Shown here: in pieces, positions 40,258-44,129 of the stretch | Layout of the letters: each line of letters opens with the position of its first letter | Numbering within the stretch: the first letter of the stretch is position 1 | NCBI GenBank assembly: GCA_964590415.1 | Contig: CAZPVQ010000005.1 | Coordinates: forward strand, 26,334 to 90,333 | DNA: 64,000 nt | Source of the DNA: an uncultured Methanoregula sp. | GTDB taxonomy: Archaea > Halobacteriota > Methanomicrobia > Methanomicrobiales > Methanospirillaceae | Direction of reading: 5' to 3' | Position numbers and translations under genes: made by a program | The notes under the pieces: model-generated | Told to the model about the DNA's origin: nothing | The model's input: only the letters and a program-made list of their open reading frames with translations | Databases searched by the model: none

Positions 40258-40884
40258 ATGTATGATGCTGTTGAGGTTTCCCGCCTGCTCGACATCCTCG
40301 GGAACCGTAATCGCAGACGAATCATTGAACTGTTGCGACAGAAACCCTGTTTTGTCACTGAGATCTCCGAGACGCTGATGCTCTCACCAAAAGCAGTCAT
40401 CGATCATCTTCAGATGATGGAGCGGGAAGCCATTTTATCCTGCCAGATGGATGATCGTCGCAGGAAATATTATTACCTCGAAAATGACATCCTCATCGAC
40501 ATCAATCTTAAACAGGTGCGGGTACTTGCCGATGGAATCGATGACGATAGTCCCCGAAATGATCTTCTTAAAAATTCGGTCACCATGCTGGGGAGAATGA
40601 TTAAAGCTCACGACATGATCCTTTCTAATCTCGAACAGGTAAATCATGATATCGAAACAAAAATGAATGACCTTGCCCGAAACCATAAGGATTTATTCAG
40701 GAGCGAACGAGAGATTACTGTAATCATAGCGCTTTCGCATGACTCTCTTACGTTTCAGGAACTGGAACAGGTCACCGAAATATCACAAAAAGATCTTGGT
40801 GAGATCCTGAAACGGTTCGAACGTAAAGGACTCATCGGGCGGATAAAAGATCGGTATATACTCCGAGGCGTATATGAAGAATAA
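40258..40884 (+). CDS. ArsR-type heat-shock regulator (Phr/HSR1 family)
   Basis: SRLLDILGNRNRRRIIELLRQKPCFVTEIS..SPKAVIDHL..RKYY resembles the P. furiosus Phr N-terminus; overlaps an Hsp20-like gene. Confidence 0.8.
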   Translation: MYDAVEVSRLLDILGNRNRRRIIELLRQKPCFVTEISETLMLSPKAVIDHLQMMEREAILSCQMDDRRRKYYYLENDILIDINLKQVRVLADGIDDDSPRNDLLKNSVTMLGRMIKAHDMILSNLEQVNHDIETKMNDLARNHKDLFRSEREITVIIALSHDSLTFQELEQVTEISQKDLGEILKRFERKGLIGRIKDRYILRGVYEE

Positions 40885-41296
40885 TCCGAACAGTCCTTAC
40901 GACGATGTTTTTAATAACCTTGCAAAGATAGTTGAAGACATTGTAAAAAACATGCCCGATAACCATCACGCACGCATAGTAGGATACACGATAATTACCC
41001 GGCATCCTTCAAACGGAGACCCCGAAGTCTTCCAGGCCGGGGATCCCGGTGATGATGATGATGAAATTCCGTACGAAGTTGTGGAATCTGATGATATGAT
41101 TTATATCACCGCCACGATGCCAGCCAATCCAAAAAACGCTCCCTCTATTGACATCCAGAAAAACAACGTTCATGTCTCTATTGATAACCGGGACATTACT
41201 ATTGTGCTCGATAAACCTATTGACAGAATTCACAGTTACTATCGGATCCACCGTGGTTTGATGGATATCACGCTGAAAAAGATAAACCAATACTGA
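40874..41296 (+). CDS. Small heat-shock protein (Hsp20/CS-domain-like)
   Basis: EVVESDDMIYITATMP..IDIQ..RGLMDITLKK alpha-crystallin-type strands; coupled to the regulator. Confidence 0.7.
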   Translation: MKNNPNSPYDDVFNNLAKIVEDIVKNMPDNHHARIVGYTIITRHPSNGDPEVFQAGDPGDDDDEIPYEVVESDDMIYITATMPANPKNAPSIDIQKNNVHVSIDNRDITIVLDKPIDRIHSYYRIHRGLMDITLKKINQY

Positions 41297-41545: not shown

Positions 41546-43729
41546 TTATACTTTTACCGGCAAATCAGATGAGGCCCACGGGGTAATAGATTGCTTTCCC
41601 GTGCGCATCTCGTGGAACTGTCGTAGCGAGACGGTTATGTCCCGGGTGAAGGCAAAATACCCGATCTGAGTATTCCGGCAGAGTTTCATCGCCATATCCA
41701 TGAGTCCACGCGGGTCAGGACGTGCTTCACCCAGCCAGATATGGAAGATGTTTCCACCATCCACAATCGGGAAAAACACATGCTCGATCTCCATCCGTTT
41801 GGTGAGCGGAACATTCGCACCAGGTGCGACATGGGTTCCGTTCGTATAGTAAACAGGAAGATCTCGGCTCTTGCCCAGCATTTCCAGACCTTCTTCAATG
41901 TCACCCTTGATAACTTTTACAGCAGAACTATGATAACGACGATCGAGGAGGTCTGCAACCGCGAACCTTTGCCCTGTCGTTTCTGCCGGGGTACGTGCCA
42001 GCGCTATGGTCATGTTGTTCTTCTTTGAAAGTTCCCGACCATAGAGTTCCATTTCCGTCATCGCACGTATAGCGAGCCTGAACGCCTCTTTTGATTCGTG
42101 GAGCTGTTTACCCGTGTGATGTTGTACCATTTCATTGACGCCAACTACGCCAATCGTGTACACAAGTCCTTCAAGGTCGACAGCAAGCGCACCACGTTCG
42201 CCAGTATTCGGGTCTTTTGGGCGCTGCATCGCAAAAGGCATCCGGCTGTTCGCCCGAATCAGGTCCATCCAGCGACGCTTGATCTTAAAAATTTCCACTG
42301 AGACCTCCATGAGTGCCTTGAGTTCGGCAAAAAGTCGTTTATCATCCCCCTCAGCATTGTAAGCAGCCCGGGGGCAATTCACCGATACAACCTGCCATGA
42401 CCCCATAGAGAAGTGCCTGCCATCCTCAAAGAAAAGTTTCTTTTCAAAATCCGAATCTTTGTCTGCCACTGTAGAAAACTGGTAGGCACAGCACTGGTAA
42501 CAGGAAATTCCTTTACCAGCCCCGCGGTAAGCAGGAAGCTGGTTATCATAATAAGGTGTTCCGAACTTTGAAGCGAGCTCGAAGGTCATCAGGTATAATT
42601 CCTGGAAGGTGGGCAAGTCGGGATTTTTGCAGTTGTAATCTTCGCGTTCATTCATGAAATCGGGCTCAATTGAGATCTCGGGCTTTGGAAAGTTGAAGGG
42701 TTTTCCCCAGTAATCTCCCTCAAGCATTACTTCCATGAGTGCCTTGAAAAGCAGACGCACCTCACGCTCGAATTCCCCGTAGGTCCTGCGGGGTGCAGAT
42801 CTGCCATCCCATATCTTCCCTTTGTATATACAGGGCTTGTCCTGCCAGAGAGTAGGAACGCCAGGTGATAGTTGAATAGATGAAAAAACGAGCTGACCAC
42901 CGCGGGCAACCATCATCTGTGTCATTTCATACACAAACATCTGCATGTTCTGTTTGATCTCGTTATACGCCATTCCTTCCATATAAGGTGCAAGGAATGT
43001 GAGGAAATTGTAATAACCCTGTCCCCCGGCAAAATTTGTTTGTGCGGAACCGAGTGCTTTCACGGCATGGAGGATTGCAACCTCGGCACGTTTGGCAGGG
43101 CCTGCTACAGAAGCTTTCGTACCATTGCCGTCAGGCATAAGTCCATAGTAAAAGAAATAACGCAGATCCCAGTCCTGGCAGAACGGGCGGGTACCAAAAT
43201 ACTCAAGATCGTGGATGTGCATCTCTCCTGACAGGTGATGATCGGCAAGATCGGGAGGGAGCTGAAGCAGGTATTGTTCCTTCGAGATCTTGTCTGCCTT
43301 CTTCTTGTGAGAAGTCTCGGCATTTTCCTGAAGGTTGGCATTATCGTGCGCTTCAAATCCCCTGCCGACATCGATCTGATGTGCATCGAAAACCGGAGTA
43401 CCGACACGGGTGGAAACATTCCGGTACTGTATCATACCTTTTTCAAGGAGGGTGATATTAACGATCTCGCGTATAAGTGGCCCGGAGAGGGACTTTAAGC
43501 CCATATTCTTGATCCGGTTTTCTACATCATGCGCGATTTCCTGTGCGGTCGCTTCGTCGGCACCCTCATAGCCATAGAATGTTTCGACGAGTTTGGTTTC
43601 TTCTACAATCTGTCGGACAATGCGATTACGATCCCATTCGATGATGTGCCCGTCAGATGTTCGGACTGAGGGGAGTACGGGAACAGTGATTCCCTCAAAC
43701 GTAAGCTGCCTGGTCTCCCGGTGTGCCAT
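41546..43729 (-). CDS. nrdD: Class III ribonucleotide reductase NrdD with ATP cone, lacking the C-terminal Zn-ribbon/glycyl-radical domain
   Basis: ATP cone; HIHDLEY..RPFC; AQTNFAGGQG; finger loop ISCYQCCAY; SVNCPRAAY; TPAETTGQRFA; YYTNGTH; GGNIFHIW; ends YFAFTRDITVSLRQF..KV* with no CxxC or RxxGY. Confidence 0.92.
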   Translation of the reverse strand: MAHRETRQLTFEGITVPVLPSVRTSDGHIIEWDRNRIVRQIVEETKLVETFYGYEGADEATAQEIAHDVENRIKNMGLKSLSGPLIREIVNITLLEKGMIQYRNVSTRVGTPVFDAHQIDVGRGFEAHDNANLQENAETSHKKKADKISKEQYLLQLPPDLADHHLSGEMHIHDLEYFGTRPFCQDWDLRYFFYYGLMPDGNGTKASVAGPAKRAEVAILHAVKALGSAQTNFAGGQGYYNFLTFLAPYMEGMAYNEIKQNMQMFVYEMTQMMVARGGQLVFSSIQLSPGVPTLWQDKPCIYKGKIWDGRSAPRRTYGEFEREVRLLFKALMEVMLEGDYWGKPFNFPKPEISIEPDFMNEREDYNCKNPDLPTFQELYLMTFELASKFGTPYYDNQLPAYRGAGKGISCYQCCAYQFSTVADKDSDFEKKLFFEDGRHFSMGSWQVVSVNCPRAAYNAEGDDKRLFAELKALMEVSVEIFKIKRRWMDLIRANSRMPFAMQRPKDPNTGERGALAVDLEGLVYTIGVVGVNEMVQHHTGKQLHESKEAFRLAIRAMTEMELYGRELSKKNNMTIALARTPAETTGQRFAVADLLDRRYHSSAVKVIKGDIEEGLEMLGKSRDLPVYYTNGTHVAPGANVPLTKRMEIEHVFFPIVDGGNIFHIWLGEARPDPRGLMDMAMKLCRNTQIGYFAFTRDITVSLRQFHEMRTGKQSITPWASSDLPVKV

Positions 43730-43998
43730 TATTCACCTGATATCAGCTTTGATAGGTGCTCCCCATCCAGTTTACCCGCAGGAAAAAGATCCGCAGAAGT
43801 GTAGAAATCAGAGTCTTTTTGCAAAACTGGGGCTTCGTGTACAAAAACCCCATTCATACGCAGCTCCGTAAGGGATTCCGCAGTCGAAAGGTCACGCTCG
43901 AAATACGTATAGCCACCCTTCGTCAGAAATCCTTTTAAATTGTCACAATTCGGGCAATATTCAAGCGTATATACGATCAATTGCGATTTTTTCGGCAC
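43729..43998 (-). CDS. nrdH: Glutaredoxin/NrdH-like redoxin
   Basis: YTLEYCPNC, EAPVL; TAATG overlap with nrdD; likely GTG start at 43998 after a GAGGGTG SD (ORF extends to 44013). Confidence 0.85.
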   Translation of the reverse strand: MPKKSQLIVYTLEYCPNCDNLKGFLTKGGYTYFERDLSTAESLTELRMNGVFVHEAPVLQKDSDFYTSADLFPAGKLDGEHLSKLISGE

Positions 43999-44129
43999 AA
44001 AAAACACCCTCACACAGTTACCTATCCAATAGGCTTTCCGGAGATAAAAAAATCATGGTTTGTTCATTTTACCTGATATATCCTCTAAGCGATTAAGATT
44101 AGTAGGGGTATGAAATAATAGTACGGTAA

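Follow-up and report, generated by a model that had tools for sequence, protein, structure and literature searches.

A 64,000-nt stretch of DNA from an uncultured Methanoregula sp. (contig CAZPVQ010000005.1, positions 26,334 to 90,333; hereafter the window) carries an nrdD gene whose product is very probably the large subunit of a class III (anaerobic) ribonucleotide reductase (RNR) that naturally consists of two pieces. The protein stops where the radical-bearing tail of such enzymes should begin, and a match to this tail is found in a 120-aa protein encoded on another contig of the same assembly. An obligate two-subunit class III RNR, neither a pseudogene nor an assembly error, is the most likely interpretation, because the genome contains no other glycyl-radical enzyme. 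Judged from its sequence, the enzyme is a class III RNR homologous throughout, without one family-defining feature, namely the radical domain on the same chain. In descriptions of glycyl-radical enzymes, the C-terminus of the catalytic chain bears the radical glycine. This textbook rule would be broken here; the only exception known is the GrcA/YfiD repair protein of pyruvate formate-lyase (PFL). A whole order of methanogens, the Methanomicrobiales, with cultured species in the genera Methanospirillum, Methanoculleus, Methanofollis and Methanolacinia, appears to run a class III RNR with an unlinked radical domain.

The nrdD open reading frame (ORF) is clean, encodes 727 amino acids and terminates at ...IGYFAFTRDITVSLRQFHEMRTGKQSITPWASSDLPVKV, followed by the stop codon. 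It matches the Pfam NRDD family (PF13597) over residues 129-701, equivalent to profile positions 1-511 of 562, with 444.7 bits (cut-off 26.2), and TIGR02487 over profile positions 2-529 of 581, with 474.1 bits (cut-off 326.35). The final ~50 positions of the profile, where the Zn site and the RxxGY motif are located, are unmatched, and the ORF ends 27 residues after the PF13597 match stops. The original prediction, made from the window sequence alone, that the protein ends before the Zn site and the glycyl-radical loop is thus borne out by the profile. The C-terminus reads ...IGYFAFTRDITV-SLRQFHEMRTGKQSITPWASSDLPVKV-stop; at the same point the closest single-chain relatives run on as ...TRDMTV-C-x13 and further residues. 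In the NrdD of P. copri, as described in PMC11226230, the core comprises residues 123-671 and the glycyl-radical domain (GRD) residues 676-739, the latter consisting of a structural Zn site, a buried Gly711 loop and a C-terminal tail and behaving as a mobile, largely rigid body. The alignment of the Methanoregula core to this protein stops at the equivalent of residue ~670, so the break falls exactly on the domain boundary.

The interval 41546-43998 of the window contains nrdD and most of nrdH. The following features were recognised in it:

41546..43729, minus strand: nrdD core gene, coding for the catalytic body of a class III RNR with an ATP-cone-like N-terminus and an alpha/beta barrel; the Zn site and glycyl-radical loop are missing
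43424..43669, minus strand: ATP-cone-like region, residues 21-102; PF03477 24.0 bits against a cut-off of 25.8 (marginal); alignable with the cone of P. copri NrdD (8p23)
43334..43342, minus strand: putative NxN flap N130-A131-N132, from the alignment to P. copri NrdD 8p23
43178..43180, minus strand: Cys184 of the TRPFC motif, the conserved active-site cysteine; unchanged among the aligned split cores and the nearest fused relatives
42476..42511, minus strand: finger loop G407-F418 (GISCYQCCAYQF) with cysteines C410, C413 and C414; identical in the fused relatives L037 and L038
41549..41629, minus strand: post-barrel tail S701-V727; S701 stands in place of the first Zn-site cysteine of fused enzymes and is followed by the motif L[KR]QFxE[YF], conserved in the order, and then by ~20 variable residues
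41546..41548, minus strand: TAA stop at the boundary between core and GRD, equivalent to about residue 671-676 of P. copri NrdD
43729..44013, minus strand: nrdH-like gene for a glutaredoxin-fold redoxin of 94 aa that has a CPNC motif; the gene's stop codon and the start codon of nrdD overlap in TAATG

The RPFC cysteine and the finger loop, which the original prediction regarded as kept, are present and align with those of the fused relatives; one of C410, C413 and C414 is presumably the thiyl-radical site. The ATP cone, likewise thought to be kept, is a marginal match, its family score being below the cut-off, and the region aligns to the P. copri cone. According to PMC11226230, the NxN flap in the P. 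copri enzyme forms a bridge between the substrate and the C-terminal radical domain, and N130-A131-N132 may act in the same way. The post-barrel tail of the core may have a docking role. The TAATG coupling of nrdH and nrdD is intact, as predicted. The product of the upstream gene scores 22.5 bits against Pfam Glutaredoxin, slightly below the cut-off of 22.9, and in each of 12 further genomes examined an ORF with the CPNC motif immediately precedes the core. Six-frame searches of the whole genome revealed neither a tail in any of the frames downstream of nrdD nor an nrdG within the window, in agreement with the earlier claims that a simple frameshift does not explain the truncation and that the activase gene is absent from the window.

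The assembly (10 contigs, 2.29 Mb, 96.7% complete) was searched in six frames with the NRDD profile. Exactly two PF13597 matches were obtained, namely the core, and a second one on another contig (G000:C1:358191-358343, G000 being this assembly) which covers profile positions 507-562 and lies inside an ORF of 120 aa (G000:C1:357993-358355). The original prediction had envisaged a split RNR that receives its radical from a separately encoded small glycyl-radical protein, recognisable as a stand-alone ORF of 60-150 aa with the motifs CxxC..CxxC..RxxGY, and the ORF found here fits this description and supports the proposal. The protein, MDWTADQRTLAQKYKRLDDIPQKERKYKCHTCHLIVDNNPCPKCGETHLEIMCPLDHCHCTHEIISGIEYCPLCGKAVCPDCGSHDVTQISRVTGYLQDVSGWNASKQQELKDRMRYSVA, contains 11 cysteines, several CxxC pairs and the sequence SRVTGY at residues 91-96, and its own match to PF13597 spans profile positions 516-562. 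When a profile of the protein and its relatives was compared with P. copri NrdD, residues 77-116 aligned to chain residues 697-737 (E = 6e-8), with Gly95 on the radical glycine Gly711 and Tyr96 on the conserved tyrosine next to it. Over its C-terminal 40-45 residues the protein shares 62-67% identity and the sequence SR[VI]TGY..V.GWN..K.QEL.DR.RY with the tails of fused relatives, and the core is 60-64% identical to the same fused enzymes. Since tail and body resemble the same enzymes, both pieces belong to one NrdD subtype, which is characterised by the GISCYQCCAYQF finger loop.

The first ~57 residues of the small protein have no counterpart in the fused enzymes. This N-terminal module comprises a predicted short helix (residues 5-13), a CxxC-x8-CxxC ribbon weakly similar to the zinc modules of Spt4/RpoE'' and PolD (E about 0.004-0.015), and a CP.D...C.H element. 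The residues C29, C32, C41, C44, C53, C60, H62, C71, C74, C79, H85, S91, R92, T94, G95 and Y96 are invariant, and the 11 cysteines together with the conserved histidines make three Zn sites plausible. The N-terminal Zn module and the LKQFxEY tail of the core may substitute for the lost covalent link. In the AlphaFold model of the small protein the pLDDT is 80-88 for residues 1-50 and falls below 50 for residues 91-96, as would be expected of a Gly loop that is ordered solely within the barrel. A fold search with this model returned generic zinc-ribbon matches (Nop10, Spt4, RPABC4 and eIF2-gamma), none of them at E <= 0.001. The small gene is under purifying selection, with a median pairwise dN/dS of 0.10 among 20 genomes; the ratio is 0.17 for codons 1-28, 0.12 for codons 29-62 and 0.06 for codons 63-120, so the selection includes the N-terminal extension (0.12-0.17).

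The NrdG activase, which the original prediction proposed to look for elsewhere in the genome, is encoded on a third contig (G000:C2:300809-301315). It has the motif CPVRCTYC and matches TIGR02495 with 141.9 bits (cut-off 131.15), and in a six-frame search this locus on contig C2 was the sole NrdG2 match above the cut-off in the genome. No PFL-like protein and no Gly_radical (PF01228) match was detected anywhere in the genome. As no other glycyl-radical family is present, the tail has no candidate partner but the core, and NrdG no candidate substrate but the tail.

The distribution of the three genes was analysed in 151 genomes of Methanomicrobiales, and NrdD proteins outside the order were analysed in a phylum sample of 251 genomes. 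The core was found in 128 of the 151 genomes, and complete genes always end at query position ~706-727, so that every orthologue in the order stops at the same place, a point on which the original prediction had called for a check. More than 100 orthologues are 87-94% identical to the Methanoregula core and all of these have 726-732 aa; across the order the identity is 75-94%, the catalytic motifs are intact and there are no frameshifts. The open frames of the cores are ~721-830 aa long, and larger where inteins have been inserted. The 13 cores taken from several families invariably have the sequence TRD[LI]TV[S/C/A/T]-L[KR]-[QRE]-[FY]-x-E-[YFQM], after which come ~20 variable residues and the stop. 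Outside the order, the NrdD proteins of the phylum sample cover the whole profile (1-560 or 1-562) in frames of ~600-830 aa, and the few apparent truncations are located at contig ends.

Matches to the small protein were recorded in 135 of the 151 genomes. Eight of these are weak (E about 1e-4) and lie inside frames of 1142-1147 aa, all in a genus without the system, and two more (in G037 and G103) are short tail fragments in frames of 42 and 32 codons, one of them at a contig start; the remaining matches are near full length and 61-89% identical to the Methanoregula protein. Orthologues of NrdG occur in 128 of the 151 genomes, and nearly every genus possesses the core, the small protein and NrdG. 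The genus without the system is represented by 21 genomes, several of which are single-contig and 91-99% complete. Neither the core nor NrdG is found in any of the 21, and the small protein yields spurious weak matches only. This joint loss of three unlinked genes is the strongest genomic argument that they work together. In addition, divergence of the small protein tracks that of the core (Pearson r = 0.89, 71 genomes), which indicates vertical co-inheritance and no more because both also track phylogeny.

Several observations weigh against an obligate two-subunit enzyme. The three genes are unlinked, lying roughly 0.1-1.6 Mb apart in single-contig genomes, and in this genome no word of 8 nt or more is common to the 160-nt regions that precede nrdH, the small gene and nrdG. 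The nrdG gene (L003:1468-2211, identical to G000:C2:300776-301519) contains neither ATG nor GTG nor TTG upstream of the CxxxCxxC Fe-S motif. The AlphaFold model of the small protein is of only moderate confidence (mean pLDDT 71). Finally, with a complete class II RNR also encoded in the genome, the class III enzyme may not be essential.

In nrdG, an ATA is present here at the exact place of an ATG in two sibling genomes, and the genes of other relatives have ATA, ATC, or CTG, GTG or TTG right before the sequence NFGGF. If an ORF caller took the first ATG as the start, the resulting protein would have 185 aa and lack the Fe-S site.

Among the rival explanations, the small protein could be a spare part of the GrcA/YfiD type, serving only for the repair of oxygen-cleaved enzyme instead of being a constitutive subunit. 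Its size of ~120 aa and its layout with a C-terminal radical domain are GrcA-like, and related free-standing tails occur beside intact NrdD in Methanococcoides and Alkanophagales. However, no genome of the order that was searched contains a full-length NrdD to be repaired, all cores being tail-less, and the protein matches PF13597 rather than the PFL-type Gly_radical family. A role in repair only is therefore improbable: because every core of the order is without a tail, the small protein must be a regular part of the enzyme. The analogy with GrcA/YfiD drawn in the original prediction holds in this sense for the part but not for its role, the only available tail being a regular subunit and not a spare. 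It is very improbable that the truncated nrdD is a decaying or non-functional remnant, with deoxynucleotides supplied by the class II enzyme and the small ORF coding for an unrelated zinc-finger protein. The presence of the complete class II RNR and the survival of one genus without any class III components are in line with such decay, but across the order the core retains 75-94% identity, its motifs are intact and frameshifts are absent, the small gene has a dN/dS of 0.10 and an invariant SR.TGY, and the three genes are kept or lost together. The original prediction had regarded full-length orthologues, combined with another complete RNR, as indicating a pseudogene; the other RNR is present, in the form of the class II enzyme, and the full-length orthologues are not.

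The core might alternatively employ another radical initiator, such as direct radical-SAM chemistry or a cobamide, and dispense with the glycyl radical. Translational coupling of the small gene to cbiZ, a cobamide-salvage gene, could be taken in favour of this possibility, to which only a very slight probability is assigned: there is a perfectly complementary tail for the glycyl radical as well as a dedicated NrdG, both conserved and sharing the distribution of the core, in which profile scans revealed no cobamide-binding feature. This initiator, offered as a fallback in the original prediction, is unneeded and explains nothing beyond what the small protein explains. Joining of the two polypeptides by a split intein, through protein trans-splicing, or an artefactual gap caused by assembly or a frameshift, is extremely improbable. 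Inteins are common in the NrdD cores of the order and the residue at the break is Ser or Cys, but the core tail (27 aa) and the N-terminus of the small protein (~57 aa) are far below the size of a HINT domain, Pfam scans of both proteins detected no intein or HINT family, the last ~20 residues of the tail are not conserved, and neither a conserved Asn before the C-extein nucleophile nor a conserved Asn-Cys/Ser/Thr junction is seen. A frameshift, read-through or hidden downstream tail was rejected on the basis of the six-frame genome search, which gave two NRDD matches, the second of them on the other contig; an assembly error was rejected given orthologues of identical length and end point in more than 100 genomes, single-contig ones included. 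As the identical architecture is seen in more than 100 genomes, among them complete ones, an artefact is excluded.

We infer the following for how the two-subunit RNR assembles, in which order activation and docking occur, and what serves as reductant. NrdG, with S-adenosylmethionine and a reduced Fe-S cluster, would take a hydrogen atom from Gly95 of the small subunit. The small subunit would then dock non-covalently and insert its Gly loop into the barrel beside the finger-loop cysteine, probably with the help of the lineage-specific Zn-ribbon module at its N-terminus and of the core's conserved LKQFxEY tail. The glycyl radical would generate a thiyl radical in the finger loop, followed by reduction of the nucleoside triphosphate as in other class III enzymes, and the co-transcribed NrdH-like redoxin would re-reduce the active-site disulfide. 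In the NrdD3-type enzyme of Methanosarcina, the active-site disulfide is reportedly reduced by an NrdH-like redoxin. A detachable radical module is plausible by analogy, since it fits the mobile rigid-body GRD of the single-chain enzyme described in PMC11226230. The split enzyme may offer a natural test system for the recognition of a free radical domain by the activase, for its entry into and exit from the barrel, and for whether a detachable tail lowers the cost of oxygen damage.

The closest known system is the single-chain NrdD3-type class III RNR with an NrdH-like redoxin (Methanosarcina barkeri; Wei, Stubbe and co-workers), which we take to be represented here by the fused relatives L037, L038, L157 and L159. 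These enzymes share with the split enzyme the TRPFC and GISCYQCCAYQF motifs and an NrdH-like gene beside nrdD. However, in the fused enzymes (760-830 aa) the Zn site and the Gly loop form the C-terminus of the same chain, whereas in the split enzyme they are encoded by a separate, unlinked gene; the detached tail has an added N-terminal Zn-ribbon module, and the first Zn-site cysteine is now a serine in the core. The NrdD3 subtype is defined, as quoted in PMC4493059, by the presence of an extra active-site cysteine and the absence of the formate-type/Glu signature. The finger loop of the split core has three cysteines and is identical to that of the closest fused relatives.

Escherichia coli GrcA/YfiD and phage T4 Y06I are autonomous glycyl-radical cofactors for PFL, according to a 2026 review. 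GrcA resembles the small protein in its size (~120-130 aa) and in that its C-terminal half is a free-standing glycyl-radical domain, and is described as activated by the activase of the parent enzyme and inserted into the parent barrel. It differs in belonging to the PFL-type Gly_radical family, in its disordered N-terminus, in the absence of a Zn site and in being a repair part beside an intact PFL, whereas the small protein is NrdD-type (PF13597), Zn-rich and the only tail of its enzyme. In the review, dated June 2026, spare-part proteins are identified only for formate lyases and are 'yet to be determined' for other glycyl-radical enzymes. The split class II RNR NrdJa/NrdJb of Pseudomonas aeruginosa (Crona et al. 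2015, as cited in PMC9669993) likewise has a separate C-terminal Cys-rich Zn-finger part, but it is cobamide-dependent, its genes lie side by side, and its detached part bears reducing cysteines instead of the radical. Split nrdD genes are also found in phages, in 6 cases among 128 phage genomes with RNR genes, as given in PMC3653736. There too the coding sequence is in two pieces; however, the pieces are adjacent, parted by introns, endonuclease genes or short gaps, and the splits are sporadic and no lineage-wide breaks at the radical-domain boundary. Class I RNR (NrdA and NrdB) also keeps the radical on a separate small subunit which docks on the catalytic subunit, but this subunit is unrelated and ferritin-like, with a metal/tyrosyl radical and long-range transfer in place of a loop inserted in the barrel. 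No description of an archaeal split class III RNR was found in the open-access literature on RNR and glycyl-radical enzymes, which included RNRdb, Lundin 2015, Burnim 2022, the structure papers on T. maritima and P. copri, a 2024 paper on aminoacyl-radical enzymes, a 2024 survey of archaeal gene fusion and fission, glycyl-radical papers of 2021 and 2026, and the phage RNR survey. In sequence annotation the truncated core is labelled as if it were complete, and homologues of the 120-aa protein, picked up via the Pfam domain, are inconsistently named 'anaerobic ribonucleoside-triphosphate reductase', 'oxidoreductase', 'Spt4/RPABC4' or 'hypothetical'; no dedicated NCBIfam model for this protein was found.

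The profile of the small protein was also searched against 1.84 billion cluster representatives, where ~100 small proteins of 39-208 aa rank above the first full-length NrdD. Two kinds of free-standing tail can be distinguished, that of Methanomicrobiales and a second kind (118-135 aa) whose N-terminus is helical and which has a CPVH motif, followed by CPxC-x4-CPxC-xxH...SR[VI]TGY. The second kind is found in Ca. Alkanophagales and in all four sampled genomes of Methanococcoides, for example in M. burtonii (WP_052286187.1, 118 aa), and includes the following genes:

L149:1477-1833, plus strand: second-kind tail, Methanococcoides
L150:1486-1842, minus strand: second-kind tail, Methanococcoides
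L152:1486-1842, minus strand: second-kind tail, Methanococcoides
L147:1498-2037, minus strand: second-kind tail, Ca. Alkanophagales
L148:1471-1830, plus strand: second-kind tail, Ca. Alkanophagales

The NrdD proteins beside the second kind are all full-length (803 and 610 aa in the one Methanococcoides genome examined, 777-781 aa for Alkanophagales), and no truncated core was detected in the Methanococcoides and Alkanophagales genomes. The second-kind tails are candidates for true spare parts of a class III RNR. In both kinds, unlike in fused enzymes, the spacer between the CPxC knuckles has 4 residues instead of ~13 and an invariant histidine follows the second knuckle. The shared spacer and histidine hint at a common origin of the two kinds, which was neither shown nor rejected by a tree of free-standing and fused tails built on 50 alignable columns (p-AU 0.45). 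It is conceivable, though on present indications rather doubtful, that the free-standing tail represents an older and wider family, which served first as a spare or exchangeable 'radical cartridge' beside an intact NrdD, persists as such in Methanococcoides and Ca. Alkanophagales, and became the sole radical subunit in the ancestor of Methanomicrobiales after the enzyme's own tail was lost. If this were true, the glycyl radical would reside on a consumable subunit, activated off the enzyme and replaceable after oxygen damage without remaking the 727-aa body.

Many cores of Methanomicrobiales lie in open frames of 1200-2000 aa, in which the match is broken at ~183/184, by Cys184, and at 406-428, by the finger loop (e.g. 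G004:C1:373476-376457 and G118:C11:963106-966078). These interruptions look like inteins inserted at catalytic sites; the copy of the core in the window is free of them. One genome has a second, cone-less truncated core (G046:C1:285037-286968), which aligns to residues 70-713 within a 673-aa frame and is located ~14 kb from the regular copy.

The small gene is part of a conserved run (L033:4306-8796, identical to G000:C1:356305-360795) comprising the genes for deoxyhypusine synthase, pyrF, the GRD protein, cbiZ and an RPA-like OB-fold protein. The cbiZ product of this locus carries a Cys-rich zf-like domain. The stop of the small gene overlaps the start of cbiZ by 4 nt in this genome. Among 20 loci checked, cbiZ starts at the same junction in 16 and 30 nt further on in L023, and there was no match in L025 and L026. 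The coupling could reflect coordination of the two RNRs, as cobamide salvage feeds the class II enzyme, or chance.

A scan for promoters and terminators of the bacterial type around nrdH-nrdD, with models not suited to archaea, gave no more hits than expected from shuffled sequence. Downstream of nrdD, on the opposite strand (window 40258-41296, plus strand), a gene encodes a protein of 208 aa in which two winged-helix domains are recognised (ArsR/HTH_5 and MarR/TrmB-like); this gene overlaps the start of that for a 140-aa protein with a weak CS/HSP20-like match, and no link of this pair to RNR was seen. Candidates for a ferredoxin:disulfide reductase (FDR), a partner in NrdD3-type systems, are two FeThRed_B (ferredoxin:thioredoxin-reductase-like) matches elsewhere in the genome, unlinked to nrdH-nrdD. 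One of them, L155 (G000:C9:23854-24114, minus strand), contains an in-frame TGA, which could be a selenocysteine codon, a sequencing error or the sign of a pseudogene.

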